A model generated the notes under the pieces. That model was not told the DNA's origin, ran no database searches, and saw nothing but the letters and a program-made list of their open reading frames with translations. The position numbers and the translations under genes were made by a program. DNA of 64,000 nt. It comes from Candidatus Thorarchaeota archaeon. GTDB taxonomy: Archaea; Asgardarchaeota; Thorarchaeia; Thorarchaeales; Thorarchaeaceae. Within the stretch, counting starts at the first letter, position 1. Each line of letters opens with the position of its first letter. The DNA lies in the NCBI GenBank assembly GCA_030612365.1, contig JAUWOA010000002.1:425-64424 (forward strand). The letters run 5' to 3'. Positions 1 to 35,206 of this stretch are shown here, in pieces.

Positions 1-587
1 TTCCACAGATGTGCATTGAACAGGGTATCAAGATGGTGGTCGTTGACTCACTGACTGGATTCTTTCGGGCAGAGCTCGGGGGATTGGGTTCACTCGCTGT
101 GCGACAACAGAGGATCAACAGGCTCCTAAACCTTATGCGCCGAGTGGCAATGGCCACTGATGTGATGTTCGTTTACAGCAATCAAGCTATCTCAAGGCCC
201 GGCATATTCTCCGTGCTGAACGCCCCGGTGGGAGGGCATATAGTGGCGCACGCGTCCGACTATCGCTTCATGTCGACAGAGGGAAAGAGCGGGAAGCGCA
301 AGCTGTACCTCAAGGATCATGCTGGGTTACCCAACTTCAATGCTGAATTTAGCATAGGGTGGGGTGGGTTCTATAATAGCGAGGATGAGAGAAAGAAGAT
401 CGAACCCGAAGTAGTAGAGTATCTCAAGAGCAAGGACATATGCGTTGAAATGCAGGAGAAGGGCAAGAAGAAGGAAACAGAGAAGGTCAAGAAGACCAAG
501 GAACCAAAGAAATCGAAGAAGGCAGAAGCCAAGGCTGAAACCAAGGTGAAGCTAGAGGCGGAGGTTGCGCCAATAGCAGAGGGCTGA
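1..587 (+). CDS. RadA/Rad51-family recombinase-like protein, C-terminal part (5' end outside window), with K/E-rich tail
   Basis: ORF 9..587 stays open to the window edge. MVVVDSLTGFFRAE (Walker B strand), RQQ-N-LL, SNQ..RP and GGHIVAHASDYRF follow the RadA/Rad51 core pattern downstream of Walker A, which must lie upstream of the window. The last ~65 aa are lysine/glutamate-rich low complexity. Confidence 0.8.
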   Translation, partial: PQMCIEQGIKMVVVDSLTGFFRAELGGLGSLAVRQQRINRLLNLMRRVAMATDVMFVYSNQAISRPGIFSVLNAPVGGHIVAHASDYRFMSTEGKSGKRKLYLKDHAGLPNFNAEFSIGWGGFYNSEDERKKIEPEVVEYLKSKDICVEMQEKGKKKETEKVKKTKEPKKSKKAEAKAETKVKLEAEVAPIAEG

Positions 588-591
588 GGCG

Positions 592-1032
592 ATGCGCGGC
601 ATGTTTAGAATATACAAATGCCCCTCCTGTGGGGCGATTGCCTACATTAGGGTGGAGAACGAGCAGGAAATCAGCATATGTGGCCTATGCAGAGGTCCAA
701 TCCTTGACGAGCCTGGAATACTCTACTCTGCAACAATCAACCAAGCTGAAGATATTGTCGCAGAGATGGTCCTCCATGATATGTTGGAAAACAAAGCATC
801 AACACCAACAAGCGGCCTCGGTGTGAGGCGCAGAGTGCTCAATATTGTCGAGTGCCTTGTGGAGCTGAACAAGGGACGGCCTGTGAATATTGATAGTGTG
901 CTTAACGAGTGTGTGGGCGCCAAGATCAAGACCGAGAGGGGCCTTCACTTCCTAGATGTGCTTGAGGAACAAGGCTTGGTCATGGTTGATGGTGGCTGTG
1001 TCAGTCTGAGAGAGGGAGGCACAGACCCTTGA
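592..1032 (+). CDS. small Zn-ribbon protein with probable winged-helix C-terminal half
   Basis: CPSC-x16-CGLC four-cysteine ribbon at the N-terminus. The C-terminal RVLNIVECLVELNKGRPVNIDSVL...GLHFLDVLEEQGLVMV looks like a wHTH. Starts 5 nt after the upstream stop. Confidence 0.5.
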   Translation: MRGMFRIYKCPSCGAIAYIRVENEQEISICGLCRGPILDEPGILYSATINQAEDIVAEMVLHDMLENKASTPTSGLGVRRRVLNIVECLVELNKGRPVNIDSVLNECVGAKIKTERGLHFLDVLEEQGLVMVDGGCVSLREGGTDP

Positions 1033-1640
1033 CGCACTTGTATGTCCCCCCCTCATCAAACGATGTGACACCCAGCTCCACGATCAATCTTGTCAATCTA
1101 CTGATGAGAAACACTAACAGACGCGTGACAGTACTCCGAGTAGGAGGAACGGTGGACCCTGACCCAGAGGTGTATGTTGTCACCCGGGTGGACTGGCGGG
1201 ATAAGGATCTAAACAGGCCAATTCTACCCCAATTGCCAAAGGTGCTTTCGATGCTGGAAACCCTTCGAGGCTCTAGGGGTGTGCCCAAGGAGATTCACCT
1301 TGACAGTACCGACGGTGTTGTGTGCTACATACCAACTGGCATCAGAATGTCCCAGCTACCAAGAAGCGCAAAGGCATCAGTTCAATTCATCATGTCCGTG
1401 GTCAACCAGACAGTCAGCCACTTCGATTCGACCCGGTCTGAGGTCGAAGACTGGTTCTGGAGGACAGCACGCAAGAGGGGCTTCAATCCTGAGATTGTCG
1501 AGAGGATCGCCCGAAGGGAGAAGCACTACGATTCGCCATCTCACGAGCATAGGTTCAGCAAGGTCATAGAGGATTACTTCTCTCTCAGATTCAAAGTCTA
1601 TCGCGCAGAGTCATGTTTGAAGCTGGAGGGAGCATACTGA
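1029..1640 (+). CDS. hypothetical protein
   Basis: 203-aa ORF overlapping the upstream stop by 4 nt. Its TGA overlaps the ATG of the XPD gene (TGATG). No motif recognised. Confidence 0.5.
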   Translation: MTHLYVPPSSNDVTPSSTINLVNLLMRNTNRRVTVLRVGGTVDPDPEVYVVTRVDWRDKDLNRPILPQLPKVLSMLETLRGSRGVPKEIHLDSTDGVVCYIPTGIRMSQLPRSAKASVQFIMSVVNQTVSHFDSTRSEVEDWFWRTARKRGFNPEIVERIARREKHYDSPSHEHRFSKVIEDYFSLRFKVYRAESCLKLEGAY

Positions 1641-3616
1641 TGGCTGTGATGCGATGGTTTCCGTACACTCCAAGGCTCCAGCAGGATCGGGCCGTGACGC
1701 ATGCTGCCCATGTATTTCAGGATAAGACAGTGGGCCTGCTATCGGCGGACTGTGGAGTTGGAAAGACAATTGCCGTGCTCTCAGGGTATCTTGCGGCACG
1801 GGCGAAAGATGCATCGTCGCGATTGATTGTACTTACGAGAACGCACTCTCAGTCAAAAGTCTTTGAGGATGAGCTTGGAGTCCTCAGGGAGGAGTCGGCT
1901 GCAATGTCAGCTGGGCTCCAATTGACGGCCACGAGCATGGTTTCGCGGGGGCATGTCTGCCCATTGACCGACGAAATGAACTCGGTGTCATCAATCGGGT
2001 TCCTACGTGCATGCGCACAGATGATAGGCGCAGGAAAGTGCAGCATGTACTGGAGCTTCTACAAACGGGGATCGGAGGGCCGACCTATAATCCGAGACGC
2101 TGCCCGGCAAACTGTTGACGCCCTGCTGAACGAGGGCGTGGTCACTCGGGATGAAGCGGAGGACGTGGGGCGCTCGGAAGGAGTATGCCCGTACGAGGTC
2201 TTGCGCTGGTGTGCGCGCAAAAGTAGAGTAGTGATTGGTCCTTACGGCTACCTGTTCAGGGAGAGAGTCCGGAATGCGCTCCTCGCATCACTTGGAATGA
2301 GCTTACATGAGGTCGACCTGATTGTCGATGAAGCACACAACCTAGCATCACATGTACTGGGCTCGGAAACCGCATGTGTCAGTCTGTCTGATCTTGAATG
2401 GCTGAGAAAGCATAACTCAGAGATAGAGCGTGAAACGCAGGTCGAGTGGCTCCCTGAGGCGGTTGACTTTCTCTGGGAAACCGTGATGACTAACCTTGAT
2501 GATATGCACTCCGAGAAAAATCTTGAGAAGTGGGATGTACTGCCAAGGTTTGTAGATGAGTCACAGATACAGAACCTACTGCTTGGGACAAAGATTGGCC
2601 TGGATGAGTCTGATGGCACAGTGCCCACGGAAACCCCGCTGGACCGATTGGTGGAATTCCTCTACACGGGGCACCGAGCAGTTCAGAGTGAGGACTGGCA
2701 TGTCACGTTAGAGGTTAGGAAGCCTTGGAGGCAAGAGTCGAACAGCCGTGATGCTGATCTGAAGATTAGACCACTGAATGCAGCTGGATTGTCGGCCCCC
2801 GTACTCAGGGGCGCAAGATCTGCGTTGCTCATGTCTGGTACTCTGAGGCCACTGCAGCACTATGCGGACCTGCTGGGAGTGTCAGGTGCCCTGATGGAGA
2901 GCCTGATGAGTCCTTACCCTCATGGGAGTCGTCTTGTGCTCCTTGACAAGGATATCACAACCAAGTACACAGCGCGGGGCGAACAGCTGTGGAGGACCAT
3001 AGCAGGAAGAATCTCAACAGCCTTGACAGCGATGCCCTCCGAGAAGAGCGCCCTGATTGCCTTTCCAAGCTACAGGATAATGGAGGATGTTCTGAGCTAC
3101 GGCATAGATTGTGGATTCAGAGCAAGGCTAGAGGAAGCCCCAGGAGAGCGCATTGAGGTTGTCAAGGACGCACTTGAGGAAGGGCCTCATACGGTGTTTT
3201 GTGTCTACGGAGGCAAATTCTCTGAGGGCGTTGACCTTGTGGAGGGCGGGTCGAGTATGATTGACCTGATTATCGGAGTTGGGATTCCATTCAGCCCTCC
3301 AACCAGCTACCAGAAAGCCCTCCAAGGATGGTACGAGAGAAGATTCGGGAAGGGTGCAGGCTACTACTACTCGTCAATCGTACCGTCTTTTCGGATGGTT
3401 GCACAGCTTGTAGGCAGACTTCGAAGGAGCCCTGAGGATCGGGGAGTGGTCGTGCTTCTCGACAAGAGGTTCCAGCAATACATCAGAGTCTTTGGAGATG
3501 ACATGGTTTCGGACCACTGGCCCTACTCAGGAGTAGACGAGATGAGGGGTGCCATTGACCTATTTGTGAGACAGAGGAACAGAAAGGCGGAGGCGAAGGG
3601 AGAGGTTGGCGTTTAA
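1640..3616 (+). CDS. xpd: XPD/Rad3 (DinG-like) superfamily-2 DNA helicase with 4-Cys Fe-S domain
   Basis: N-terminal FPYTPR..Q, Walker A DCGVGKT, DEAH box (VDEAHNL). Four spaced Cys (VCPL, RACAQ, GKCSMY, GVCPYE) lie between motifs I and II. Later motifs SGTLRP, GKFSEGVDL, RLRRSPEDRGVVVLLDKRF. The ATG at 1640 is preferred over the longest ORF start (1613) because it overlaps the upstream stop. Confidence 0.85.
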   Translation: MAVMRWFPYTPRLQQDRAVTHAAHVFQDKTVGLLSADCGVGKTIAVLSGYLAARAKDASSRLIVLTRTHSQSKVFEDELGVLREESAAMSAGLQLTATSMVSRGHVCPLTDEMNSVSSIGFLRACAQMIGAGKCSMYWSFYKRGSEGRPIIRDAARQTVDALLNEGVVTRDEAEDVGRSEGVCPYEVLRWCARKSRVVIGPYGYLFRERVRNALLASLGMSLHEVDLIVDEAHNLASHVLGSETACVSLSDLEWLRKHNSEIERETQVEWLPEAVDFLWETVMTNLDDMHSEKNLEKWDVLPRFVDESQIQNLLLGTKIGLDESDGTVPTETPLDRLVEFLYTGHRAVQSEDWHVTLEVRKPWRQESNSRDADLKIRPLNAAGLSAPVLRGARSALLMSGTLRPLQHYADLLGVSGALMESLMSPYPHGSRLVLLDKDITTKYTARGEQLWRTIAGRISTALTAMPSEKSALIAFPSYRIMEDVLSYGIDCGFRARLEEAPGERIEVVKDALEEGPHTVFCVYGGKFSEGVDLVEGGSSMIDLIIGVGIPFSPPTSYQKALQGWYERRFGKGAGYYYSSIVPSFRMVAQLVGRLRRSPEDRGVVVLLDKRFQQYIRVFGDDMVSDHWPYSGVDEMRGAIDLFVRQRNRKAEAKGEVGV

Positions 3617-4205
3617 TTCTGCTAGTAGTCAGCTGAGGTATGTCGTGCCTGGAGCTGTTGGCGCAGCTTGGTCACTCAGGATGGCCCTTGACCAGTCATA
3701 TCAGGTTGTTCTTGAGTCGACAATAGGGCTGTTCCTCCTGTTGGTCGCCTTTGTGATATACATGAAGGGATGTGAAAAGAACCTTCTACTCTGGAACAAC
3801 GATACTGCGGTTCTCGCCACTGTAAAACCTCTCACAGTGGAAGTGTGCGCAGCCCGACTCATGACCAGTGTCCCGCTTGGGATTGACCTAAGCTATTCCG
3901 CGGGTAGAGTCCTTGAAACCATGACAATCAGGTTCAATGAGGAAAAGAATGCAGAACTGCGGTTCTTTGTCTGTCGACCTTTGGGACGTGGGGTTACACG
4001 CGTAGGCATGATGGTGGTTCGTCAAGCACCAAACATGCGTAGGTTGGCGTCTGTTGTTAAGAAACTGTCAGAGAAGGTGCTGGAGGATGTAATGGTCTTG
4101 GAGAGTGCTCTGCGCGCAGCCTATGCCCATATGCCCATTGCACGAGCGGAGCTAGATGATATCGCTCTCATAAACTCTGGAGGTGTGGATTTCGTTGTCA
4201 ACTGA
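3606..4205 (+). CDS. hypothetical single-pass membrane protein
   Basis: 199-aa ORF overlapping the XPD stop. One hydrophobic helix (IGLFLLLVAFVIYM). No catalytic motif. Confidence 0.5.
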   Translation: MAFNSASSQLRYVVPGAVGAAWSLRMALDQSYQVVLESTIGLFLLLVAFVIYMKGCEKNLLLWNNDTAVLATVKPLTVEVCAARLMTSVPLGIDLSYSAGRVLETMTIRFNEEKNAELRFFVCRPLGRGVTRVGMMVVRQAPNMRRLASVVKKLSEKVLEDVMVLESALRAAYAHMPIARAELDDIALINSGGVDFVVN

Positions 4206-4482
4206 GGTGCAAGCCCAGATCACAATCCCCACATCGCTACGCCCTCAGGCTGTCATGGACTCTTTGTCAATTGGCCATGGTTACAGTTGGATTGTTCTTG
4301 TTCCTACGCCAATGAGGATAGCTCATGGAAGCACATCGTGCGGGGACATGCCCGAGCTACTGATTGTAGGCAAGACCCTCCTGACGAGCGGGGGAAATGA
4401 AGTTTACATTGGCCGCCTGAGGAGGATGCTTGAGGTGTTGTCGGGCACTGTTGTGAAAGTGCGGAGGGATAGCGATGTCTAA
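4183..4482 (+). CDS. hypothetical small protein
   Basis: Fills the gap between the flanking genes and overlaps both. Alternative ATG at 4255. No motif recognised. Confidence 0.35.
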   Translation: MWISLSTEVQAQITIPTSLRPQAVMDSLSIGHGYSWIVLVPTPMRIAHGSTSCGDMPELLIVGKTLLTSGGNEVYIGRLRRMLEVLSGTVVKVRRDSDV

Positions 4483-6826
4483 GGGCGGCCATATCATGGG
4501 TTCGAAGCCCGAGAGAGACCCTCTGGAGGAGATAAAACAAGCCCAGCTTTGGGTTACGCAGAGCACCGAGCTTAGATGGAGCGATAGAAGTGTTCGTCCT
4601 CCATGGACGAAAGTCTTTCTGGCAACGGCAATGATTATCGTAGGAACATTCTGGATGCCGTGGCTTACAATCACGATGACGGTACTAGCATCCGTCATTC
4701 TTCTGATTCTTCTCAACCTATTCTCGGTGAACAGAACCCTGAAGGAATGGACACGTGTTCCTGAACCCGATCTATCGCTTGAGGAGGATGAGAAGAAGAA
4801 GTACGTCTGCAGCAGGGGAATAGGAGGCGAGCGGCATATCGTGGGCATGAGCCTCAAGTCGGTTTCCTCCGACCTAGGGGGTGATCTTGGAAAACTCATT
4901 CGGGGGGTAGATACTGGGTATGGTCTGTGCCTTACGGTGGCTATGAGTCCTCAGAATCCCAAGACTGTCCTTGAGGGCGATATCCTGCCGGAAGCACTTC
5001 AGACTTACTTGGAGCACATGTCATCAAACGGGCTCAAAGGTTACATGCTTCGCAGAGGCGGCCTGTGGAAAGCAAGCACGTCGGTATATGGACATTCAAG
5101 AGACCGACTTGCACTTCCCAGATTCGAGGCTTCCATCAAGGGAGCAATTCCGGAACCCGGCTGGAAGAGGGACAAGGCTAAAGATATCTTGGAACGAATC
5201 ATGACTCTTCAACTCACTAGGAACAGCGCATTCCATGCCAGTGGGAGCGAGTTGACGGAGTGGCTCGTTCAGCTTAAGAGCGAACTTGGACCGGAGGTTG
5301 GCAGCAACGTACCCGGCGAGTTCATAGCACCTATACGTGACAGGCCGGGCGATTACCGCCTAGGCGTGACAATCAATCCTGAAACTCTCCAGACTGGACC
5401 AATGGCAGGCATGTGTCACAATGATCTAACCGGAGGAATGTTGCTCTGTGGAGGTGATTGGCCGGAACGACGCAGAGTAATGATGCTCTTGACCAAGCAG
5501 CTTCTGGATGCCGGCAAGCGAGTAATGATTGTGAGTTCCAGGTCCGAGGCGATGGAGTTCGCAGCTCTTACAGACTCGGGGATTGGGTTGACTCTGGGAA
5601 AGGACCTCGTTCTCAATCCAGTCGATGCTGAGGACATTCCGAGAAGCCTGTACGTGCCCCAACTGAAGATGGCACTTGAAACCATTGCAGACACAGACCT
5701 GAGTTCCGCCGCAGATTTTGAATTGGCATTAGGGAGGGCGGTTGCCTTGTCGAACGCAACGCTCGCAGATGTCACACTCCCAAGCGCGGACACAGACATG
5801 ATGGATGGCACAGAGGGTCCTACAACGGACAGGACCTCTCGGAAAACAGAAGCAGGGATGGAAGCAGTCAAGGTGCTTTACCAAGGGTCAGGTTCAAGAG
5901 CTTTCTACGGGCACCAGACTGTTAAGCTATCTAAGCTAGCAGAACAGCAGCTGAGCGTCACGGTCATATCATTGGGGTCAATCATTCTCGATACATTCGG
6001 GTGGGACCTCTTCAGCATGAAGCTAGCCGGCCTGCGCAGTGATTCCGATTTAGTTGTGATCATTGATGGTCCCTTCAATCTCAAGCTCTATGGACCATAC
6101 GATTCCAGGTACAAGAGACGCGTCCCTTGGACTGATCAACTCACACGCGACTTGACAAGAAGAGGACCTCTGATTGTGAGCATTGAGAGACCATCGGGTC
6201 TTGCCACGGAGGTTGTGGCTAGGTTATCATCGTGCATATCCCTACGGCTTCGCAACAATTGGGATATCGGTGTTGCTACAGACATTCTCGGGTTGACAGT
6301 CATTGGCCATGGTTTGCACAGTAAGGCCCGCCAATCCTCCAGAGAGTCATCATATCTTAGAGTGATGGAGAAGGGAATTGCGCTAATGGTACATGACGGT
6401 GCAGAAACCTGCCAGCCAATACAACTTGATGACGCCCCTGCCTTGCTACCACCATCGACCGATGAGTTGTCGAACAGGGCAGCAGGGGTTTCCAATGGTA
6501 TAACCAGCGACGATGGAAATACAGGCCATACGACTCTGATAGGTCATGTAGCTGGAAGCGAAACTGACTTGGCTGTGAGTGTGCTCAGATTGCTTCAGCG
6601 ATACGAACCCCTCACAGAGGAGGCACTTCACAGGTTTATCATCTCAAGCAGTGGACGGGAGGATATGGATGTCGAAGCAGTGCTTGTCAGGCTAGAACAT
6701 GCCAGTATGATCCTGCGGGGCCACGAGTCACATGGCGGAGTGTCCTACGCGAATTACAGACTAACCATGAAAGGCACGATGGCACTACACCAGATGGCGG
6801 GAGAAGAAGCCACAGCTACAGGATGA
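4475..6826 (+). CDS. membrane-anchored HerA/FtsK/VirD4-like P-loop-fold protein with degenerate Walker motifs and C-terminal wHTH
   Basis: Two N-terminal TM helices (FLATAMIIVGTFWMPW, TMTVLASVILLILLNLF). The core has HerA/DUF87-like order, but Walker A reads GGDWPERR (nt 5450..5473) and the Walker B position reads LVVIIDGPFN. ISLRLRN..D follows. The C-terminus (LRLLQRYEPLTEEAL...YRLTMKG) looks like a winged helix. Confidence 0.6.
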   Translation: MSKGGHIMGSKPERDPLEEIKQAQLWVTQSTELRWSDRSVRPPWTKVFLATAMIIVGTFWMPWLTITMTVLASVILLILLNLFSVNRTLKEWTRVPEPDLSLEEDEKKKYVCSRGIGGERHIVGMSLKSVSSDLGGDLGKLIRGVDTGYGLCLTVAMSPQNPKTVLEGDILPEALQTYLEHMSSNGLKGYMLRRGGLWKASTSVYGHSRDRLALPRFEASIKGAIPEPGWKRDKAKDILERIMTLQLTRNSAFHASGSELTEWLVQLKSELGPEVGSNVPGEFIAPIRDRPGDYRLGVTINPETLQTGPMAGMCHNDLTGGMLLCGGDWPERRRVMMLLTKQLLDAGKRVMIVSSRSEAMEFAALTDSGIGLTLGKDLVLNPVDAEDIPRSLYVPQLKMALETIADTDLSSAADFELALGRAVALSNATLADVTLPSADTDMMDGTEGPTTDRTSRKTEAGMEAVKVLYQGSGSRAFYGHQTVKLSKLAEQQLSVTVISLGSIILDTFGWDLFSMKLAGLRSDSDLVVIIDGPFNLKLYGPYDSRYKRRVPWTDQLTRDLTRRGPLIVSIERPSGLATEVVARLSSCISLRLRNNWDIGVATDILGLTVIGHGLHSKARQSSRESSYLRVMEKGIALMVHDGAETCQPIQLDDAPALLPPSTDELSNRAAGVSNGITSDDGNTGHTTLIGHVAGSETDLAVSVLRLLQRYEPLTEEALHRFIISSSGREDMDVEAVLVRLEHASMILRGHESHGGVSYANYRLTMKGTMALHQMAGEEATATG

Positions 6827-9081
6827 TGCGATATGACGAGTCTGAAGACCAAAATGCAACAGCAGGAGGAACAAGCTTGACATCCGCCATGGATACCACC
6901 ACATACGTGAAGGGCATTCTCGCAGGCGTGGGGCTCACTCCTAGGGGTATCCAGAGCAAGGCAATAGAGGCAGGACTGCTTGAGGGCAAGAGTATCATGG
7001 TATGTTCCCCTACAGGTTCGGGCAAGACGCTTGTTGGAGAGATGGCGCTCCTTAGAGGGGTCAGCGACATTTGCAAAGGCATCTACCTCGTTCCCCTGAG
7101 GGCGCTGGCCACGCAGGTTGTCAGTGTTCTCAAGGAGCGCTATGCTGACCAGGGAATCAGGATTGAGGTCTCCACAGGGGACTTTCAGACCGATGGCTCC
7201 GACCTAGCAGAGGCTCAGATACTTGTGACGACCTACGAGAGAGCAGACTCCCTCGTGAGGCACAAGGTTGACTGGCTCAACAAGGTTGGAGTGTTGGTCA
7301 TTGACGAGGTACAGAATATCGGGCACACGTCAAGAGGCGCGCGTTTAGAGAGCGTCATTATGAGGATGCGGAAACTGACTGAGGACCTCCAGATAGTTGC
7401 CCTATCTGCTACTGTCGGAGAGCCCTACATGCTAGCTGATTGGCTAGGGTGCCATCTAGTGGAATCTGATGTCCGTCCTGTGCCGTTGACGTGCAAGCTG
7501 GTTCCAACAACAGATCGTGAGAAGACTGTGCAGCAACTTGTGATGGCCACTGTGCAGGCTGACGGTCAGGTGATTGTATTCCACAGGACAAGACGCGAAA
7601 CTGAGGCTGAGGCTAACCGTCTGAAGGATAGTGTGGGGCGACAGCTGCGCACCAATGAACGGACGACCCTTGACAGGGAGATGGACTCCTTAGAGAACTG
7701 GAATGTCACAATACCCTCGGAAATGCGGCCATTTCTGCACGATGGTGTTGCATACCACCATGCTGGTCTTGGAGCCCGCACGAGAAGGCTTGTCGAAACC
7801 ATGTTCGATCGTGGACTGTTGAGGGTGGTCTGTGCAACTACAACACTGGCAGCTGGGATGGATCTACCTGCACGAACAGTGGTACTCACATCAGCAAGGT
7901 CCCCCCAACATCACAAACGGTTCCTTCCCGCCAATCAGGTCCATCAAATGCTGGGCAGGGCGGGCAGACCGGGAAAGGATGTTAGGGGTTTTGGAGTGAT
8001 TCTCACTGGTAGCCAAGGCGAGGTCAAGATGCTGACAAAGGAGTACTTTACGAATGAAGTCAGTCTTGATACTGGAAAGATAGTTCTGACGCCAAAGTAC
8101 GAGCCAGTGACTAGCGAGCTTGGGACATCGAACAGCCTTACAGAACAACTGCTAGTAGCACTCGATTTTCTAGGAGAGGCATCCCTTGAAGAGGTCGAGC
8201 AGGAGTACCTTGGAGAGTCATATTTGTTCTACTGTGGCAGATGGCTAACGAACACCCCCATGAGGATTGTGCAACTCGGTGAGGTGACTGCGCAGGCCGC
8301 AATCGAGCGCCACGCCAATCCGAATATGGTCCGTTCTGCAAGAGAAAATATACTGGGTACGGTCAAGATTAGAGAGCGTGGTGATACAGTCATCGGGGGG
8401 ATTGTTTCTGTGCTGAGGAGTGGACAACAGACATGCAGGTTCTCAGCAAGGATGACATCTGATGGTACGCTGGAGGGTCCGATGTGCTCATGCGGAAGCC
8501 CCATGAACAAGCATGGCTTTCTGTGCAACCATCTTGTTGCGCTTGGCATGGCAGCATCATCGGAGATGATTCAACTGGCCAATTATGTAATCCCTCTCGC
8601 GCTGAGTGAAACAAGTCCGAGTGGCCTTCTGATACGCCTTGGACTCTTGGAGGGTGGTGAGGGCGGCAAGTTGCGACCCACAACCCTCGGCAGGACTGTG
8701 AACAGACTCTACCTCAAGATTACTACCTTCAAAGAGATGATGGCTCTTATTCCGACAATTGGGAGTAACACAGTCCTAATGTCGGTGCTGAGGCATCTGG
8801 TATCACTTGAAACAGGGCAGAAACAGGGTGAAACCTTTGAGGCCCTCATCGGCTCTGTCGCATCAACCAATCTCTCGATGAGAGAAATGGCTCGTATGAC
8901 TAACCTTGCCGTAGGCGACATAAAAGCCCTACTTGACAAGTCACGCTTGCTTCTATACTCGATTGTAGCAGTGGCAGACAGGGGCAACATGGAGCGGGTG
9001 TCTGAGATGGTGCAAGACCTTCTCTCGATTATAGATTCAAGATTACATCACATGGAGAGCGAAAACAATGACAGTAACTGA
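6823..9081 (+). CDS. Ski2/Hel308-like superfamily-2 helicase with embedded SWIM-type zinc finger
   Basis: Motif I SPTGSGKT, motif II VIDEVQ (Q replaces the usual H, nt 7303..7314), SAT, HHAGL, TTTLAAGMDLPA, QMLGRAGRPG. C-x-C-x10-C-x-H (CSCGSPMNKHGFLCNH, nt 8485..8532) lies in the C-terminal third. ATGA overlap with the upstream gene. Confidence 0.85.
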   Translation: MMRYDESEDQNATAGGTSLTSAMDTTTYVKGILAGVGLTPRGIQSKAIEAGLLEGKSIMVCSPTGSGKTLVGEMALLRGVSDICKGIYLVPLRALATQVVSVLKERYADQGIRIEVSTGDFQTDGSDLAEAQILVTTYERADSLVRHKVDWLNKVGVLVIDEVQNIGHTSRGARLESVIMRMRKLTEDLQIVALSATVGEPYMLADWLGCHLVESDVRPVPLTCKLVPTTDREKTVQQLVMATVQADGQVIVFHRTRRETEAEANRLKDSVGRQLRTNERTTLDREMDSLENWNVTIPSEMRPFLHDGVAYHHAGLGARTRRLVETMFDRGLLRVVCATTTLAAGMDLPARTVVLTSARSPQHHKRFLPANQVHQMLGRAGRPGKDVRGFGVILTGSQGEVKMLTKEYFTNEVSLDTGKIVLTPKYEPVTSELGTSNSLTEQLLVALDFLGEASLEEVEQEYLGESYLFYCGRWLTNTPMRIVQLGEVTAQAAIERHANPNMVRSARENILGTVKIRERGDTVIGGIVSVLRSGQQTCRFSARMTSDGTLEGPMCSCGSPMNKHGFLCNHLVALGMAASSEMIQLANYVIPLALSETSPSGLLIRLGLLEGGEGGKLRPTTLGRTVNRLYLKITTFKEMMALIPTIGSNTVLMSVLRHLVSLETGQKQGETFEALIGSVASTNLSMREMARMTNLAVGDIKALLDKSRLLLYSIVAVADRGNMERVSEMVQDLLSIIDSRLHHMESENNDSN

Positions 9082-10888
9082 GGAAGAAATGCCAATACAT
9101 AAGGCTGAGGAGTCCAAGAGTCCCAAAGGAGAATCGAAGACTTACGATATAGTGGAGGTCCTAAAGGCTACTGACCACCTAACCCATGTTTCCCCCAATG
9201 GGCTGGTGTTGGGAGTAAGGGTCTCGGGGATTTCAGGGGCAAGAGGGGTCCACGTTGAGATTGTTCATATACTGGACCTTAGGAATGCGGTCTTTGGCAA
9301 GGGTGGTTTTGCCTTGCAGGCATCGGTTCTTGAGAGTGTTAACAGGGGACTCCCTAGCCTCTTGAAGGACGTTGGGCTTCGAGAACGATTGGAGGCGACA
9401 TCACCGTTGACCCCTTGGGGACGAGTGCCCATGCGTACTCTGCGTTCTGCGTCTGGCAAGCGAAAGTCCTTGGTTTATGAAACCAGACTTGTCTACGTTG
9501 TGACTCAGGATGTCCGATCCTCGGCAGACCTGAGCTGGTTGACTGCAAATGAACGGGTGGTCAGTGTGCACGACTTTTCCCTTGCTAGAAAGAGCGACGC
9601 AAGAACCATTCTGCCCGACCTCGAGAAGAGCCTAATCGTGGATAAGTGGGATGGTTTCTCAAGGGCTATCCGGAATGGATGGTACGGAGTGCTAGCGGCT
9701 GGGGCCAGTGTACTCGGGGGTGTGACATCCCTCATGGTCCTGTTATCGAACTCAGGCAACCTCACTGTACCATTGGCCTTTATGGGGGTGTGTGGAGCGG
9801 GAGCAGCATGGCTACTCAAGCAGTCCCACAATGGGCTAAACGAGTTCCGCAAAATAATCGAGAGTGAACAAGCAGGAGTTGCATCTCTTGGAGATAGGAA
9901 ACGTGTAGCGGCTTCGATAAAGAATAATGAGAAGAAAATTAGGCTCATTGGCGACCTGAGCTTTGTGATATCCCCCTTAATGGCGTCAGCATCGAATAAC
10001 CTTGAAGATAGCGACGTTAACGGTGCCGTAGTGCTTGCAGAAAGGGTCTTGGATGAACTCGTAAGGCTCGCTCCATCTGATGAAGCCAAGAAGGGCATTG
10101 TGACCGGGGACGCTGGGATTGAGAGATTCATTGGCGTCTTCCGAAATGTAGGCGCAGACCTGACAGAGACGGAGGAGGTTTCTCTAGCCCTTGCTTACAC
10201 CGCAGTAACAGGACATGTCACTACGCCGCTAGGGGTAGAAGAAGCCCTGACGCATATGGCAGTCTTGAATACAAGTCTGTTCAATGCAGGTGTATTGAGT
10301 CCGACAGTTAGGGGCTCCATTGATGATATGTTCATCTCGAGGGCATTTCATGTAATCATTGACGAGTTCGGTGCAGATCTTGCCAAGCCAGAAGAGGAGA
10401 TTGTGCAGACCGTTGAGGGGGATGACTCTGGCATGGAGGAGCTAATTGGGGACATTGCAAAGTCCGGTCCGGTTTCAGAGGAACACGAGGAGGAAGCTAA
10501 CCCCGAGGTGGAAGAAACCCCTGAAGAAGAACTGCCAGTAGGAGCTCCCGCTGAGGTGGAATCCACAAAGGATGAAACTGAAACCGATTGTGTTGAGGCA
10601 GTCGAGGTCGAACTCGCGCCTCCGAGCAAAGCGGAACCCGACGGGACCCAGAATGATACTGATAGCAAGGAGAAGCGAGAGGAAGAGGCAATTCCTGAGG
10701 TCTCAGACGATGTGACTGTTGCAGAGGAATCAGAAGCGCTTGTGGTGGCGCAGTCTTCACTTGATGAGGTAGAGAACGAAAAGGACCCCTCTACGGGGCC
10801 TGAGGCCATCAGCAGGAGGAAGAAGAAGCAAGCCAAGCAACGTGCTATGGGTCGAACGAAGCGGGAGCGTGGTAAGGTCGCAGCTTGA
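9068..10888 (+). CDS. hypothetical membrane protein with acidic low-complexity C-terminal region and basic tail
   Basis: Two TM helices mid-protein (GVLAAGASVLGGVTSLMVLL, LAFMGVCGAGAAWLL). About 130 aa of E/D-rich sequence, then RRKKKQAKQRAMGRTKRERGK. Overlaps the upstream stop. Confidence 0.55.
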   Translation: MTVTEEEMPIHKAEESKSPKGESKTYDIVEVLKATDHLTHVSPNGLVLGVRVSGISGARGVHVEIVHILDLRNAVFGKGGFALQASVLESVNRGLPSLLKDVGLRERLEATSPLTPWGRVPMRTLRSASGKRKSLVYETRLVYVVTQDVRSSADLSWLTANERVVSVHDFSLARKSDARTILPDLEKSLIVDKWDGFSRAIRNGWYGVLAAGASVLGGVTSLMVLLSNSGNLTVPLAFMGVCGAGAAWLLKQSHNGLNEFRKIIESEQAGVASLGDRKRVAASIKNNEKKIRLIGDLSFVISPLMASASNNLEDSDVNGAVVLAERVLDELVRLAPSDEAKKGIVTGDAGIERFIGVFRNVGADLTETEEVSLALAYTAVTGHVTTPLGVEEALTHMAVLNTSLFNAGVLSPTVRGSIDDMFISRAFHVIIDEFGADLAKPEEEIVQTVEGDDSGMEELIGDIAKSGPVSEEHEEEANPEVEETPEEELPVGAPAEVESTKDETETDCVEAVEVELAPPSKAEPDGTQNDTDSKEKREEEAIPEVSDDVTVAEESEALVVAQSSLDEVENEKDPSTGPEAISRRKKKQAKQRAMGRTKRERGKVAA

Positions 10889-11564
10889 GAACGATTCCAT
10901 GTTCGGGCTTAACGGTCTGATACATCTCTCTGGAGTGGCTGGTTCTGGCAAGACCCTCTTTGCAGTCGCCTTGGCATCCAAGGCTACGCGGAGTGGGAAG
11001 GTGCTATGGATCAACACCGATGCGAAGACAGCATTTGTCAATCATCTGAAGGTCAACATTGATTCAGTGGGTGGCGACAGGATAGCAATCTCTATTCTCC
11101 CAATCATGGGTCATAAGCGCGTCCGAGAAGCCATTCTGAACCTTCCAGGCAGTCTTGACGAGGACACGGTGCTTATTGTAGTCGATCCCGTAACGCGAGC
11201 CTTGGACATGTCCCACAGAGAGGATGTGATGTGGGGTAGAGAGATGTTCGAGGAAGTGATGCCCACCCTTGCAGGTCTGATTGCTAGAGGATTGAATGTG
11301 ATTATTGTGTCTGAGAGCAGGAGCTTTGACCGCGAGCCTGTTGCCGTGTTTCATAGGTCGATAAAGGGGTGGGCTGATCACGACTTGGTGCTTTCTAGGC
11401 GGTATGGCACATCAGTCACCGACGTAACACGCTATCAGACTGAAGGTAAAGTTCCTTTCGTGCAATTCACACTAGCAGAGGAGGGGGTTGTGAAGGTGAC
11501 AGAATACAATGAAGGAGACAACTCGGAGGTGTCGGATTGTTCGGGAAGTCGATGCTCCGCATAG
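10842..11564 (+). CDS. RecA-superfamily ATPase (RadB/KaiC-like short RadA paralog)
   Basis: Intact Walker A GVAGSGKT (nt 10932..10955) and Walker B-like LIVVDPVTRAL. No N-terminal HhH domain. The ATG at 10899 (MFGLNGL) is an equally plausible start 10 nt after the upstream stop. Confidence 0.75.
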   Translation: MLWVERSGSVVRSQLENDSMFGLNGLIHLSGVAGSGKTLFAVALASKATRSGKVLWINTDAKTAFVNHLKVNIDSVGGDRIAISILPIMGHKRVREAILNLPGSLDEDTVLIVVDPVTRALDMSHREDVMWGREMFEEVMPTLAGLIARGLNVIIVSESRSFDREPVAVFHRSIKGWADHDLVLSRRYGTSVTDVTRYQTEGKVPFVQFTLAEEGVVKVTEYNEGDNSEVSDCSGSRCSA

Positions 11565-12508
11565 TGGGACTGGTAGTTGCTGGTGCCGTGGCACTTGCCT
11601 TGGGAGCCAGCCTGCTGAGTTCAGTTGTGGGAGTTGTAACTGCTCTAAGATCTGGGGATATGGTCCCGTTCATTGTTGTGGCAGTGACCACAGTCATCTT
11701 CCTCAGACTGTCTGCACGACCCTATGAGAAACGAACACCTGTTCACGTTTTGCTAGAAGTGCTCGGATGGACCTCTGCAATCTACTTGTTCGTGGTTGTT
11801 CTAATGTGGGTGCTTCCATTCGGAGTGGTGCCGGCAATCCTTGCAGCAGGGGTCACAGCTGTGTTGTGCGGGTTCGTAAGAGACCCAACCGGGCTCAATG
11901 AGAAAATGAGTCGAATTGCAGATGTTTCATCATCATTAGGTCTGAGTCCTACTGGGTTGAGCATCACCTCGCAATTAGACAGCACTCAATCGATGTGGGC
12001 GAGAATAGAGAATCTCCGGTATAAGGTCATAATCATTCCCCACAATCATTTTGACACAGTGATTGGCCTCCTCAAGGACCGCCCCAAACTTCCAGTATCC
12101 CTCACACGACTGGAGGATACAGATGCTCTGATAGTGAGAGATGAGGAGTGGACTGACAGAGTCCTTGAAGTGTTGAGAGAGAGTGGCGTTCCTGACGCAC
12201 ATATTGCCTCCCCTCTTCTTGAAAAAGCGATACTTGCACACCCCCTGTTGGAGCAGGATCACGGGGTCAAGGTCAATGACTATCAATTCACCTGTGACGC
12301 TGACACCGTGGAAAAATTACTAGCAATTCAACCGCTGCGAATGACCGTGTATCCCGATCCCAAAGGACTGGTTGTGATGGTTTTCAGTGACAGCGTACCC
12401 GGACTCAACCTTGAACCCCTTCCGATGGGAAGAGCGGCATCAGCAGTTATGGCCCGTGATATATCACACCTACCCAGAGGTGAACCTACTATTGGCAATT
12501 CCACTTGA
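11537..12508 (+). CDS. hypothetical polytopic membrane protein with soluble C-terminal domain
   Basis: Four or more hydrophobic helices in the first ~110 aa, then a ~200-aa soluble region. Overlaps the upstream gene. Confidence 0.55.
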   Translation: MFGKSMLRIVGLVVAGAVALALGASLLSSVVGVVTALRSGDMVPFIVVAVTTVIFLRLSARPYEKRTPVHVLLEVLGWTSAIYLFVVVLMWVLPFGVVPAILAAGVTAVLCGFVRDPTGLNEKMSRIADVSSSLGLSPTGLSITSQLDSTQSMWARIENLRYKVIIIPHNHFDTVIGLLKDRPKLPVSLTRLEDTDALIVRDEEWTDRVLEVLRESGVPDAHIASPLLEKAILAHPLLEQDHGVKVNDYQFTCDADTVEKLLAIQPLRMTVYPDPKGLVVMVFSDSVPGLNLEPLPMGRAASAVMARDISHLPRGEPTIGNST

Positions 12509-13205
12509 TTCAATTGACATAGCAACAGAGCCAGTGACGAGGCTGGTGCCACGACAACTTGACAGGGTGTTAGGACAACTACTGATTCCAGGTCAGGTCA
12601 GCCTTATTCACGGCCCTGACAGGTCTCCACTGACGACTATTGCGCATGCTGTTGCGGTGGGTGCTGTCAAGTCTGGCGGACGGTCCGCATACCTGGATTC
12701 TGGTAGCAACTACAGCTCCGCCTTGACGAGGGTGCTGTGCAACAGAAGTGGTTCTCCGGAGGATTTGCTAAAGGAGATTTCAGTGGGACCGGTGATGAGT
12801 CTTGCAGATCTTGAGGGGATGGTCCTTCAGGTGTCCTCCATGGAAGGAATCACAATGGTTGTGGTGGATAGTCTGACGGGAGTGCTGAACCTAACGGGTG
12901 CCCCGAGGAGCAAGGGCAGACAGAGGAAACTCTTCGCCACCCTTGAGGTTCTGAGGGGTGTCGTGAATGACAATAATATCCATCTATTCATCACAGACCA
13001 CTCGACAAGGAACTGGAACAGCGGAACACCCAGCCCGATTGGAGGCAACGTCATCGCTCATGGGGTTGACTCTCTCATCAGAGTGGACCGCCTTGCTGTC
13101 AAGGAGGGTATGTTCAGGCTTGAGGTGGAGAGAAGTCCGGTCAATCCAGCTGACAAGGGAGTGATTATACAAATTGGACTGAATGGAATCAGGTCGATCA
13201 AATAG
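12387..13205 (+). CDS. RadA/RadB-like RecA-fold paralog with degenerate Walker A
   Basis: RQLDRVLGQLLIPGQVSLIHGPDRSPLT occupies the position of LD.LLGGG....i.G..GsGKT, so the P-loop is lost (nt 12612..12635). Walker B strand MVVVDSLTG and GGNVIAHGVDSLIRV are retained. The true start is uncertain; a GTG at 12534 would avoid the 122-nt overlap. Confidence 0.7.
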   Translation: MTAYPDSTLNPFRWEERHQQLWPVIYHTYPEVNLLLAIPLDSIDIATEPVTRLVPRQLDRVLGQLLIPGQVSLIHGPDRSPLTTIAHAVAVGAVKSGGRSAYLDSGSNYSSALTRVLCNRSGSPEDLLKEISVGPVMSLADLEGMVLQVSSMEGITMVVVDSLTGVLNLTGAPRSKGRQRKLFATLEVLRGVVNDNNIHLFITDHSTRNWNSGTPSPIGGNVIAHGVDSLIRVDRLAVKEGMFRLEVERSPVNPADKGVIIQIGLNGIRSIK

Positions 13206-13211
13206 GAGGAA

Positions 13212-14204
13212 TTGGGGGTGGGTGCAAAGAACTGGAACTTCGTGCCTTGGGAGTGGGCTAGCATTGACGAGCTTTCTCCAAGGACAATCGCTATAGACGC
13301 CCCGAACTATCTTATCCGCAGACTGTCTACCATCCGGAGGGGTAGCAGGTTCAATCGAGTTCCCTTAAGTCATATTCATGTTGTTCTCGGTATAATCCGC
13401 GCAGCGCTTCGCACTCATGTCCTTCCAGTACTGGTGTTCGATGGCCCTCCTGAGACACTGAAACGTGCTCCCAATCCCGAGCTCATCATTGCGGCACACG
13501 ATCTATACCGCACCTTCTACTCTGAGAGAGACCCCTACAACCACAAGCTGGTCAATGACCTGCAGGAAAGTCCTGCACTGAGGATGTACTTTGCAGCGTT
13601 TCACATCAAGGATCTCTGCAAAAGCCTGGGTATCCCATGTATCAACTCGCCCTCTGAGGCTGAGATGGCGGCTGCAGTCATGTGTCGTGATGGGTTGGTT
13701 GGCACGGTTGTGTCGAATGATGCTGATGCGCTATTGTTCGGAAGCCCGCATGTCACAAAACAGCTCCATCTCACAAAGAGGGAAATTTTCAGGGTCACGC
13801 AGAGTGAGCTTGAGGCCAAGATGGACCTAGACCTAGAGCATCTGAGGGACCTTGCTATTGTGTGCGGGTGCGACTTCCACAAGCAGGGTGTGAAGGGAGT
13901 GGGGCCTCGCAAGGGGGTGGTCCTCCTTCAGAGGCACGGAGGTCTTGTAGGACTTCTCAAGGCGCGTGGCTATACTGCATTTCAGAGAGAGGATTACATT
14001 CTCGCCCGAGAGGTCTTTGATGAGCCTAATCACATGTCCAGCAATGGGTTTGATATCACTCTCAGACCTCCAATGGTCCCAATGGCAGTCAGGCTGCTCA
14101 GCGCTGTTATGGGAACGGAGAAGGCCAAAGAAACCGTGGCGAAGATAATACGACTGTGGAAAAATTTCGGTGAACAGCAGACAACACTGGAGCAATTTGC
14201 ATGA
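13212..14204 (+). CDS. fen1: flap endonuclease FEN-1 (XPG/Rad2 family)
   Basis: MGV N-terminus, IAIDAPNYL, VLVFDGPPETLK, SPSEAEMAAAVM, SNDADALLFGSP, H3TH region CGCDF..GVKGVGPRKG. The extreme C-terminus QTTLEQFA is PIP-box-like. AGGAGGA at 13204..13210; start at TTG 13212 or GTG 13218. Confidence 0.85.
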   Translation: MGVGAKNWNFVPWEWASIDELSPRTIAIDAPNYLIRRLSTIRRGSRFNRVPLSHIHVVLGIIRAALRTHVLPVLVFDGPPETLKRAPNPELIIAAHDLYRTFYSERDPYNHKLVNDLQESPALRMYFAAFHIKDLCKSLGIPCINSPSEAEMAAAVMCRDGLVGTVVSNDADALLFGSPHVTKQLHLTKREIFRVTQSELEAKMDLDLEHLRDLAIVCGCDFHKQGVKGVGPRKGVVLLQRHGGLVGLLKARGYTAFQREDYILAREVFDEPNHMSSNGFDITLRPPMVPMAVRLLSAVMGTEKAKETVAKIIRLWKNFGEQQTTLEQFA

Positions 14205-14247
14205 CGAGAAGCGAGGGGCATATCCCGAGAATAGGAGGACGATAGGA

Positions 14248-17402: not shown

Positions 17403-17498
17403 TCGGGACTATCCTATCCTAGAGCCCTCTCTCCAATAGTCTAAGTATATTGTGTTCATCCTTACTGCAAGGATAACCCACGTTGAGAGGATGAAGGA

Positions 17499-18098
17499 AT
17501 GCAGATTGACTTGGCAGCTGCACTGTTTGCAAATCTAGTGTTCTCCGTCAAGATTGCACCTGGGATACTGGTGATTGTGACAGTCGTCAGAGGACTGATA
17601 CTCCTCAGTGGACAGAAGCGAGAGTTCGAGGACTGGACACGCAACACGCTGATGTCAGCCCTATCGATCATATTCCTCCCCGGTACACTAGCCTACATCG
17701 CGATAAGATACACAGTGAGCAGAGCCTTTGGCATAGATGTGGAGAACATCGGTACCTCAACAACCTATGGGGAGATCAACCTTTTCCTGAAAGTGGAACG
17801 TCCACCTCGGGTAGCGATTGTGCTATCTGCCCTGTACATGATAGTGGTGATGTCGGTGTTTGTCGCACTATCGTTGATTCTCCTTCCAGCGTTACTGTTC
17901 TTCCAGAACATGCCAGCGGTGCTGCTCTGCTGGTACGTGGCGGTAGGTGTTCTCTTCAACAACTCGTTGAGGAGCGGGGATATTTCCCTGGTGGTTGCAT
18001 CCCTGCGCAGAAGGCCGCGTACTGGTGCGCTTGAGTTCATCGCTGTGATGGCGGCGCTTGTTCTTCTCTATACGCAGGTTATGGGGGTGCTCGTTTGA
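17499..18098 (+). CDS. hypothetical polytopic membrane protein
   Basis: 199-aa ORF with 5-6 hydrophobic helices, divergent from 15516..17402. Confidence 0.55.
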   Translation: MQIDLAAALFANLVFSVKIAPGILVIVTVVRGLILLSGQKREFEDWTRNTLMSALSIIFLPGTLAYIAIRYTVSRAFGIDVENIGTSTTYGEINLFLKVERPPRVAIVLSALYMIVVMSVFVALSLILLPALLFFQNMPAVLLCWYVAVGVLFNNSLRSGDISLVVASLRRRPRTGALEFIAVMAALVLLYTQVMGVLV

Positions 18099-35152: not shown

Positions 35153-35206
35153 TGACTATCTTCTCTGATATCAAGGGTTCATGCTGGACGCCGTGAAGGG
35201 TTCAGC

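Follow-up and report, generated by a model that had tools for sequence, protein, structure and literature searches.

Bacterial competence modules combine the ComEC channel, the ComFA DEAD-box translocase, DprA, RecA, and SsbB, and the archaeal herA-nurA-mre11-rad50 operon, which joins a ring protein of the HerA/FtsK superfamily to recombination enzymes, is short and cytosolic. Rad51-paralog mediators (Rad55-Rad57, BCDX2, RadB, and the aRadC/Rad55-like proteins) are short RecA-fold paralogs, and HerA- or Hel308-related proteins occur in defense systems such as Sir2-HerA (Nezha), DUF4297-HerA, TdpAB, and Hachiman (HamAB). In Crenarchaeota, the chromosomal Ced (CedA, CedA1, CedA2, and CedB) and Ted (TedA, TedB, and TedC) systems, which are domesticated type IV secretion systems, contain a membrane-associated VirB4/HerA-fold protein and lie near HerA, ParA, and Rad50 genes (PMC9905601, PMC11868833); in Thermoproteales, HerA and Rad50 genes co-localize with the loci for Ted DNA import, an arrangement that was read as a coupling of import to recombination (PMC9905601). 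In this study, we describe a 15-gene operon of Candidatus Thorarchaeota that places recombinases, helicases, a flap nuclease, and membrane proteins in one transcriptional direction. Most of it lies at the start of the window, the 64,000-nucleotide (nt) stretch of DNA that was analyzed (assembly GCA_030612365.1, contig JAUWOA010000002.1, positions 425 to 64,424 of the forward strand).

The operon is specific to Thorarchaeota-type Asgard archaea, with one more divergent lineage carrying its first 12 genes. We considered it about an even chance that its products form a complex for recombination or DNA processing that is vertically inherited and tethered to the cytoplasmic face of the membrane. 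The operon spans approximately 15.8 kb on the plus strand and begins 2.4 kb upstream of window position 1, as seen on the source contig, an 87-kb ENA metagenome contig (L001). Two genes, g1 (260 amino acids, aa) and g2 (155 aa), and the 5' part of the RadA gene g3 lie outside the window, whose positions 1 to 14204 hold the following 13 open reading frames (ORFs), g3 to g15:

1 to 587, plus strand: g3, RadA-type recombinase, C-terminal 194 of 379 aa (Pfam Rad51, 1.6e-19); full gene at L001 8857-9996
592 to 1032, plus strand: g4, 146 aa, N-terminal four-cysteine zinc ribbon (weak Zn_Ribbon_TF match, E 0.0014)
1029 to 1640, plus strand: g5, 203 aa, soluble, overlapping the XPD start; 58% mean column identity, the best conserved of the uncharacterized proteins
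1640 to 3616, plus strand: g6, XPD/Rad3-type superfamily 2 (SF2) helicase, 658 aa from ATG 1640 (longest ORF from 1613); DEAD_2, HBB, and Helicase_C_2 domains
3606 to 4205, plus strand: g7, 199 aa, N-terminal transmembrane helix or hairpin at approximately 10-52, followed by a 145-aa domain
4183 to 4482, plus strand: g8, approximately 99 aa, soluble, at the same position in most loci; junction overlaps of -14 and -4 nt with g7 and g9
4475 to 6826, plus strand: g9, 783 aa, VirB4/HerA-fold pseudo-ATPase (structure model and Foldseek)
6823 to 9081, plus strand: g10, Hel308/Brr2/ASCC3-type SF2 helicase, 752 aa (Pfam DEAD, 1e-32; Helicase_C)
9068 to 10888, plus strand: g11, 606 aa, N-domain of approximately 200 aa, transmembrane hairpin at approximately 205-250, and helical C-domain
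10842 to 11564, plus strand: g12, RecA-fold (RadB/KaiC-like) ATPase, 221-240 aa, starting at GTG 10842 or ATG 10899; weak AAA/KaiC/RadB matches
11537 to 12508, plus strand: g13, 323 aa, the only polytopic operon protein, with four N-terminal transmembrane helices by hydropathy
12387 to 13205, plus strand: g14, Rad51/RadB-like paralog (Pfam Rad51, 5.5e-9), possible starts 12387-12534
13212 to 14204, plus strand: g15, FEN-1/XPG-family 5' flap nuclease, 330 aa (XPG_I, 1e-18; XPG_N, 1e-5)

The operon resembled the Ced and Ted systems in being archaeal and chromosomal, in encoding a membrane-associated VirB4/HerA-fold protein (g9), and in linking this protein to homologous recombination genes. In contrast to those systems, however, g9 had no Walker A motif, the operon gave no sign of a VirB6/CedA-like channel or a VirB2/CedA1-like pilin, and the recombination side was far larger, with RadA, two paralogs, XPD, a Hel308-type helicase carrying a SWIM-like motif, and FEN-1 in a single operon; no sequence similarity of the operon proteins to Ced or Ted components was found. 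The likeness to herA-nurA-mre11-rad50 lay in the archaeal operon form and in the linking of recombination enzymes with a ring protein of the HerA/FtsK superfamily, but the ring protein g9 was membrane-anchored, carried a VirB4-like N-domain, and was catalytically dead, and no Mre11, Rad50, or NurA domain was found among the 15 proteins by Pfam and NCBIfam. The combination of a membrane complex, an SF2 helicase, a recombinase, and mediators may be analogous to bacterial competence, although, as far as general knowledge of that system goes, only generic RecA and SF2 folds were common to both and the operon had no ComEC-like polytopic channel.

Like the Rad51-paralog mediators, g12 and g14 were short RecA-fold paralogs, the former with an intact and the latter with a degenerate Walker A motif; unlike those mediators, they shared an operon with the recombinase, were interleaved with membrane proteins, and scored far below the RadB cutoff. 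The HerA and Hel308 defense systems were approached by g9, which resembled HerA subunits in structure, and by the core of g10, which resembled HamB, whereas the Thorarchaeota operon had no effector partners, a dead ATPase, class-wide vertical conservation, and a strand-exchange recombinase. The fold of g9 matched VirB4, but the functional Walker A and B motifs of T4SS (type IV secretion system)-derived transfer ATPases were absent. Because the operon belonged neither to T4SS-derived transfer systems nor to HerA-NurA-Mre11-Rad50 or known defense systems, we rated it as apparently a new kind of system, one that combines folds already known and has a function predicted from its sequences. No description of this gene cluster was found in the searchable full-text literature on Asgard archaea and Thorarchaeota, with subscription-only literature outside the scope; a 2026 review of Asgard archaea mentioned the presence of XPD and Hel308 generically only, and the Ced/CedB/VirB4 literature dealt with Crenarchaeota systems only.

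Operon Structure and Conservation of Gene Order

A first-pass annotation, made from the sequence alone, had described a 14-kb operon of 13 same-strand ORFs running from the window edge to fen1. All junction coordinates that it listed were reproduced in the sequence, with overlaps of 1-46 nt or gaps of 4-6 nt in the ORF table. The common strand and tight junctions were thus borne out; the unit itself proved larger, with 15 genes and a start upstream of the window, because g1 and g2 preceded the truncated first ORF, which was a full-length RadA gene on L001. GGAGG-type Shine-Dalgarno-like motifs were located 5-12 nt 5' of most proposed starts in the window, including the TTG starts at 1029, 3606, 11537, and 13212 and the ATG at 1640, which overlaps the preceding TGA. 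Upstream of the operon and outside the window (L001, approximately 7500), a GGGG(N0-6)YCTAT element was observed approximately 109 nt from the g1 start. The element recurred at -108 to -111 nt in 7 of 26 Thorarchaeota loci, with one further locus having it at -69, against a background rate of 0.009 per 300 nt, and could be the promoter or operator of the operon.

A scan for g9 across one genome per GTDB species yielded 48 loci, one per genome, nearly all from metagenome-assembled genomes (MAGs) labeled Thorarchaeota or "Promethearchaeota." When the 15 proteins were compared with all loci by tblastn, genes occurred in identical order and on the same strand wherever the contig extended, with one exception (L042). 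Outright colinearity was found in 44 of 50 loci; the remaining six reflected truncated contigs and cross-matching of RecA-paralog queries to RadA. All 15 genes were matched in 19 loci. Protein identities to the window were 25-64%. The median distance at each of the 14 junctions was -35 to +14 nt, and the operon spanned 15.1-16.0 kb (21 loci). Similarity to the window across loci was mostly positively correlated between pairs of operon genes (rho 0.01-0.85), which agreed with co-inheritance but was weak evidence, because the relatives were about equidistant from the window.

Two departures from the common arrangement were found. In MAG QM1B.10 (L042, 2800-3600), XPD came directly after g4, without g5 and without Ns in the sequence, through either a genuine deletion or an artifact of assembly. 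In the divergent lineage (L056), g1 to g12 were kept in order (identities of 41% for RadA, 31% for XPD, 25% for g9, and 37% for the helicase g10), and g13 to g15 were absent from the locus. Conserved linkage among relatives had been named in advance as a test of the idea of a dedicated machine, and a single order was kept in about 48 species genomes, with one MAG lacking g5. Since the gene order persisted, the L056 lineage included, relatives did not scatter these genes. One further fragment (L007, MAXT01000013.1, 2130 bp) was binned as "Desulfuromonadales bacterium C00003107," and its g9 and g10 were 95% and 88% identical to those of the window; the likeliest explanation is wrong binning of a Thorarchaeota sequence.

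The Pseudo-ATPase g9 and Its Wider Family

The structure of g9 was modeled with AlphaFold2 (AF2) from 26 orthologs, giving a pLDDT of 74, and above 85 in the core. The protein comprised a short N-terminus, a transmembrane hairpin at approximately 45-84, a VirB4-like N-domain, a RecA-like P-loop domain, and a C-terminal domain at approximately 688-782. Foldseek matched the model to PDB structures of full-length TrwK/VirB4 of the R388 T4SS (E 2e-12; 783 aa against 783-800 aa), of Sulfolobus solfataricus HerA (4e-12), and of the C-domain of T. pseudethanolicus VirB4 (4ag5; TMt 0.67, root-mean-square deviation 4.7 A), with further matches to Sir2-HerA, TdpAB, and TrwB. Matches in BFVD were to HerA-like proteins and to one protein with a conjugal-transfer annotation. 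By profile search against PDB, a marginal HerA match was obtained for residues 486-605 (E approximately 0.1).

The Walker A motif of g9 was destroyed, reading LLCGGDWPERRRV in the window. In 41 orthologs, its position was occupied by CGG....R..V, in which an invariant arginine (R332) replaced the lysine, and Walker B was altered; no G....GK[ST] Walker A motif was present in 24 distant g9 relatives. The densest run of invariant residues, and the most conserved part of the protein, was 688-782 (helix-helix-helix-strand-strand). The model suggests that this segment is a winged helix, and it otherwise gave a weak Replic_Relax match (E 0.03). The first-pass annotation had called g9 an inactivated HerA-like protein, which was right in substance, given the dead P-loop and the HerA match, while VirB4 proved at least as close by Foldseek.

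Homologs of g9 fell into approximately 70 clusters, all of approximately 780 aa, and the named ones were mostly from Thorarchaeota. Four close relatives were 80-93% identical to it and the rest 40-54%, mostly 42-48%. A hidden Markov model search of 1.8 billion representative proteins retrieved 166 g9 relatives, among them full-length proteins of 810-850 aa and approximately 1250 aa on AT-rich contigs, one of them labeled Lokiarchaeota. Two distant AT-rich contigs carried a g10-like helicase together with a g9-like gene, which indicated that the pairing of a pseudo-VirB4 with a SWIM-like helicase extends beyond Thorarchaeota. On one (L058), a g9-like gene (1261 aa) was located approximately 4 kb from a g10-like helicase (E 6e-132 over g10 profile positions 14-701) in which the CSC..C.H motif of g10 was retained. 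On the other (L057), approximately 9.6 kb separated the helicase, at the edge of the locus, from the g9-like gene, and the g9-like protein belonged to the family with one Lokiarchaeota-labeled member.

Between the two genes of L058 (5181-7349, plus strand), a 722-aa protein with a helix-hairpin-helix (HhH) motif and a C-terminal transmembrane hairpin was encoded, which is predicted from these features to be a membrane-anchored DNA-binding protein. In a different cluster on an AT-rich contig (L054, 5058-14240; also L055), a g9-like gene of 850 aa was accompanied by an M50-like membrane peptidase, a 273-aa protein, a DUF87/HerA-like 873-aa protein, and an 831-aa protein; this cluster appears to be another undescribed membrane system.

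Membrane Proteins and Uncharacterized Soluble Proteins

Transmembrane segments had been claimed for the four proteins starting at 3606, 4475, 9068, and 11537 (g7, g9, g11, and g13), and their hydropathy peaks were indeed conserved in position in 10 distant orthologs of each. In g7, the peak was found at residues 31-54 or thereabouts, with an N-terminal hairpin in some orthologs, and the 145-aa domain gave no family or PDB match. The transmembrane pair of g11 was kept in its 10 orthologs, and its C-terminal tail was disordered and acidic, with a basic patch at the very end.

For g13, an AF2 model built from 13 sequences (pLDDT 68) contained four transmembrane helices and a probably cytoplasmic, tandem beta-alpha-beta-beta-alpha-beta (ACT/ferredoxin-like) domain, and its best PDB hits by Foldseek were weak ACT-domain matches (best E 0.04). 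The possibility that g13 is a VirB6/CedA-like channel was considered and dropped: Foldseek against PDB gave no VirB6/CedA-like or T4SS match, within the limited sensitivity of a model at this pLDDT, and profiles of g7, g11, and g13 matched no T4SS chain in PDB. We know of no solved CedA structure against which it could be matched. No ORF of approximately 70-120 aa with two transmembrane helices was found in the operon, g8 (99 aa) having no transmembrane segment and g7 having a hairpin but 200 aa; a VirB2/CedA1/TedC-like pilin could be encoded elsewhere.

The zinc-ribbon cysteines of g4 (C10, C13, C30, and C33) were invariant in 15 orthologs, and its C-terminal region looks like a winged helix from its sequence. 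No match to g1, g2, g5, g7, g8, g11, or g13 was obtained in Pfam, NCBIfam, PHROGs, PADLOC, or PDB profile searches; the profiles of g1, g5, g7, g11, and g13 gave nothing below E 0.02 against PDB sequences, and Pfam searches with isolated sub-domains returned nothing significant. The first-pass annotation had also asked whether its unknown proteins would match housekeeping families, and none appeared among the matches from these sources. No PHROG match was found for the 10 uncharacterized proteins. PADLOC did not match 11 of the 15 operon proteins or two downstream neighbors, and its other matches were to generic helicase cores or P-loops.

Recombinases, Helicases, and Nuclease

The enzymes that had been named from the sequence (three RecA/RadA-fold proteins, XPD, a Ski2/Hel308-like helicase, and FEN-1) were all confirmed at the level of domains and motifs, and their scores against curated family models were low. 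Full-length g3 had an N-terminal HhH domain (HHH_5) and a RecA core with an FKSA (FxxA-type) motif and Walker A and B, and some of its orthologs are labeled RadA by PGAP. Its NCBIfam scores were 238.6 against a cutoff of 259 (NF003301) and 221.8 against 361 (TIGR02236). Identity to the RadAs of P. furiosus and S. solfataricus was 37% and 32%, compared with 57% between those two. The Walker A motif, GPARGGKTQ in the window, followed G[PK]A[RS]GGKTQ in all 95 g3 relatives in which the motif was found, compared with GEFGSGKTQ in both reference RadAs. From these sequences, g3 probably belongs to a RadA-like subfamily and is no clear RadA equivalog. In the window lineage, g3 ended in a Lys/Glu-rich low-complexity tail of approximately 60 aa (window positions 380-587), absent from most orthologs (346-363 aa); a search for RadA homologs retrieved operon-type RadAs only, the Lys-rich tail having probably dominated the word index.

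The other two RecA-fold proteins were homologous to each other (hhalign probability 96.6%), and all-against-all hhalign comparison of the operon families revealed this pair only. Against the RadB model (cutoff 172 bits), g14 scored 60 and g12 scored 22 bits. Walker A and B were intact in g12 (G.aGsGKT and liviDp, kept in 33 orthologs). In g14, Walker A was degenerate (HGPDRSPLTT in the window) and was lost in 28 orthologs (HG.eRaplt), in which Walker B was retained. The likely start of g14 is TTG 12492, preceded by a Shine-Dalgarno-like GAGGTGA and giving 237 aa, where orthologs mostly have 234-245 aa.

For g6, the assignment to XPD agreed with the domains present and with the Walker A motif, DEAH box, and four Fe-S cysteines, kept in 39 orthologs; because its score against NCBIfam rad3 (TIGR00604) was 150 bits, below the cutoff of 247, g6 was regarded as a divergent XPD member. 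The core of g10 (approximately 39-420, with a DEiQ box) was of the Hel308/Brr2 type, with PDB profile scores of 252 bits to Brr2 and 225 bits to Afu Hel308 over the core only. Scores against the NCBIfam Hel308 models were 261-330 bits (cutoffs 887-1200). Membership in Hel308/Hjm, as judged from the winged helix, ratchet, C-terminal HhH, and equivalog score, was not found, as the core alone aligned. The 330-aa C-terminal half matched no Hel308 structure in the PDB profile search and carried a CSC..C.H (CxC..CxH) motif at residue 555; the Pfam SWIM model did not match g10, and "SWIM-like" refers to this motif. The helicase motifs were kept in 36 orthologs, L056, and L058.

In g15, the XPG_N and XPG_I domains were accompanied by all catalytic carboxylates in alignment with M. 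jannaschii FEN-1 (motifs in 29 orthologs), and a C-terminal Q.tLEqw resembling archaeal PCNA-interacting protein (PIP) boxes was conserved. Scores were 126 bits against fen_arch (TIGR03674; cutoff 352) and 85 bits to MjFEN-1. Given 126 against 352 bits, g15 is probably a FEN-1/XPG family member that is not a canonical FEN-1 ortholog. Because the scores of RadA, XPD, the Hel308-type helicase, and FEN-1 fell far below the curated cutoffs, we suggest that the operon enzymes are most likely specialized paralogs rather than housekeeping copies.

Flanking Genes

The boundaries of the operon were conserved among loci, and its outer upstream flanks varied, with GH3, TFB genes, or a TopoVI-A-like gene. 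The last was seen at 1-1711 of L004 (equal to L037), just upstream of the operon, as a 709-aa protein with HhH repeats and TopoVI-A/Spo11 domains (TP6A_N, Toprim). A Spo11/TopoVI-A link was considered and rejected, as the gene lies upstream in L004 and L037 only and shares merely the HhH motif with the HhH protein of L058; because it occurs in one lineage only, its position was judged incidental.

Downstream of the operon, the following genes were observed:

14170 to 14979, plus strand: histidine kinase (HisKA/HATPase_c), overlapping the 3' end of g15; found elsewhere in the nearest relative (L006) only
15516 to 17402, minus strand: x17, 628 aa, convergent with the operon, at the same position in most Thorarchaeota loci
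18235 to 26061, plus strand: 2608-aa protein with Big_1, MG2, MG4, Filamin, and prenyltransferase-like toroid domains and hydrophobic segments at both ends
34106 to 36295, plus strand: tandem aspartate/ornithine carbamoyltransferase paralogs, 348 and 362 aa

As only L006 shares it, the histidine kinase was taken as a lineage-specific insertion between the operon and x17. Across loci, x17 measured 560-690 aa at 22-31% identity, and it had no Pfam, NCBIfam, PHROG, or PADLOC match. The 2608-aa protein looks like an A2M-like surface protein. A protein of approximately 2600 aa recurred downstream of the operon in L004 and L017, and in L056, a giant protein (16621-22337) followed g12 directly on the same strand, with GH3 directly upstream of the operon. 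Besides the two carbamoyltransferases, the remaining window encoded rubrerythrin, a flavodiiron-type protein, penicillin amidase, and an oligopeptide ABC transporter. The GC content was 0.51-0.53 in the operon and 0.47-0.52 in its surroundings. Scans of the window found no tRNA or Rfam family, and no integrase was found in the flanks or nearby.

Proposed Function and Alternative Explanations

A membrane-tethered DNA processing or recombination machine had been put forward in the first-pass annotation, and this was the best-supported reading, because the gene linkage, the transmembrane segments, and the lack of housekeeping matches all came out in its favor; the DNA uptake given there as an example of its role was left unproven. 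In such a complex, g9 would form a ring or scaffold anchored in the membrane, would hold DNA via its putative winged helix, and, with g7, g11, and g13, would recruit the soluble enzymes. XPD (5'->3') and the Hel308-type helicase (3'->5'), with the opposite polarities expected from their families, would unwind or translocate the DNA. RadA would form the strand-exchange filament, with g12 and g14 as its mediators, as Rad51 paralogs are elsewhere, and the FEN-1-like g15, probably with PCNA, would trim 5' flaps after strand invasion and synthesis. Candidate substrates are incoming DNA and a membrane-tethered chromosome.

Several observations weighed against this proposal. The co-transcription of the 15 genes is a prediction from their spacing, and not all parts of the operon can be obligatory, as L042 is without g5 and L056 without g13 to g15 at the locus. 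Having lost its Walker A motif, g9 cannot be a canonical motor. The transmembrane segments of the operon proteins look, from hydropathy rather than from a topology predictor, like hairpin anchors of cytoplasmic domains and not like a pore. Seven of the 15 proteins (g1, g2, g5, g7, g8, g11, and g13) had no recognizable fold or function and g4 had a zinc-ribbon motif only, so that the membrane part of the model draws on hydropathy and one fold match. The PIP-like tail of g15 would equally fit a housekeeping FEN-1.

A domesticated, T4SS-like apparatus for DNA uptake or exchange, built around the VirB4-like protein in the manner of Ced/Ted or bacterial competence, with the helicases pulling and RadA, its paralogs, and FEN-1 integrating the DNA, was judged doubtful. 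The suggestion of DNA uptake or exchange had been made before, and the VirB4-like fold of g9 gave it a concrete, if incomplete, basis: g9 matched full-length TrwK/VirB4 of similar length as well as the VirB4 C-domain, and a BFVD match carried a conjugal-transfer annotation. Four membrane proteins in the operon, the co-localization of Ted loci with homologous recombination genes (PMC9905601), and the conserved neighboring Ig/A2M-like surface protein of approximately 2600 aa, directly downstream on the same strand in L056, pointed the same way. However, the Walker A motif of g9 was destroyed in every relative, and the only polytopic protein, g13, was without VirB6/CedA-like similarity. No channel- or pilin-like component was detected: the operon had no small two-helix pilin-like gene, and Pfam scans of its proteins found no VirD4- or relaxase-like gene. 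The profiles of g7, g11, and g13 met no T4SS chain in PDB, and the transmembrane segments appear to be anchors. The idea that the locus is part of a mobile element, such as an integrated plasmid or virus, with its own recombination and replication module draws on the frequency of VirB4/HerA-fold proteins and recombinases on conjugative elements and in viruses, and was largely refuted and highly improbable, as no integrase, tRNA target, repeats, or PHROG matches were found, and the locus kept the same chromosomal neighbors in distant genomes, with uniform composition and one copy per genome.

The same stability bore on a defense function, in which invading viral or plasmid DNA would be sensed or degraded at the membrane, as in Sir2-HerA, type IV CRISPR, or Hachiman. 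PADLOC matched g6 to DinG of type IV-A CRISPR (2.7e-75) and g10 to HamB (1e-37), and HerA-fold defense complexes were among the structural matches of g9. Those PADLOC matches covered generic helicase cores only, with no Sir2, HamA, or Cas partner; a strand-exchange recombinase with two paralogs is no defense signature, and the GC content was not atypical. The locus was single-copy and colinear, with neighbors conserved class-wide at 25-60% identity, which indicated vertical inheritance, unlike patchy islands, and the earlier suggestion of a defense island was set aside; we regard a defense role as quite improbable. A super-operon of ordinary replication and repair genes, in which these would be the only RadA, XPD, Hel308, and FEN-1 and the membrane proteins would be passengers or nucleoid-membrane tethers, was held to be improbable. 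It would account for the RadA hallmarks of g3 (HhH, FKSA, and Walker A and B, together with the PGAP names) and for the PIP-like tail of g15. Against it stood the scores of g15 and g10 relative to their cutoffs, the absence of a detectable Hel308 C-terminal half in g10, and the distance of g3 from the P. furiosus and S. solfataricus RadAs, which are closer to each other across phyla. The overlapping stop/start junctions with membrane genes were conserved class-wide, and g9-like and g10-like genes were paired in other lineages.

A more far-reaching form of the exchange idea, in which Asgard archaea would have an apparatus of their own for exchanging chromosomal DNA among cells, perhaps involving the giant surface protein, was thought unlikely. 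At cell-cell contacts, a ring in the membrane with a VirB4-type motor as its ancestor would receive the DNA, XPD- and Hel308/Mer3-like helicases would reel it in, and a Rad51-like recombinase, paralog mediators, and a FEN-1/EXO1/GEN1-family nuclease would recombine it on the spot.

Implications for Thorarchaeota

To our knowledge, no Thorarchaeote has been cultured, and DNA exchange and recombination in these archaea are essentially uncharted. The operon supplies approximately eight uncharacterized conserved protein families, together with the SWIM-Hel308 subfamily and the pseudo-VirB4 family, all of them accessible to biochemical study through heterologous expression. Even on the conservative reading, the reorganization of recombination genes into one membrane-linked operon would be unusual for archaea. 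If the products form a dedicated machine, they would represent a novel type of system in which recombination or DNA transfer is coupled to the membrane. Should the operon serve DNA exchange between cells, the pair of a g9-like protein and a SWIM-like helicase would be its ancestral core, and the archaeal group closest to eukaryotes would possess a membrane-coupled, prokaryotic equivalent of the toolkit that eukaryotes use for recombination.

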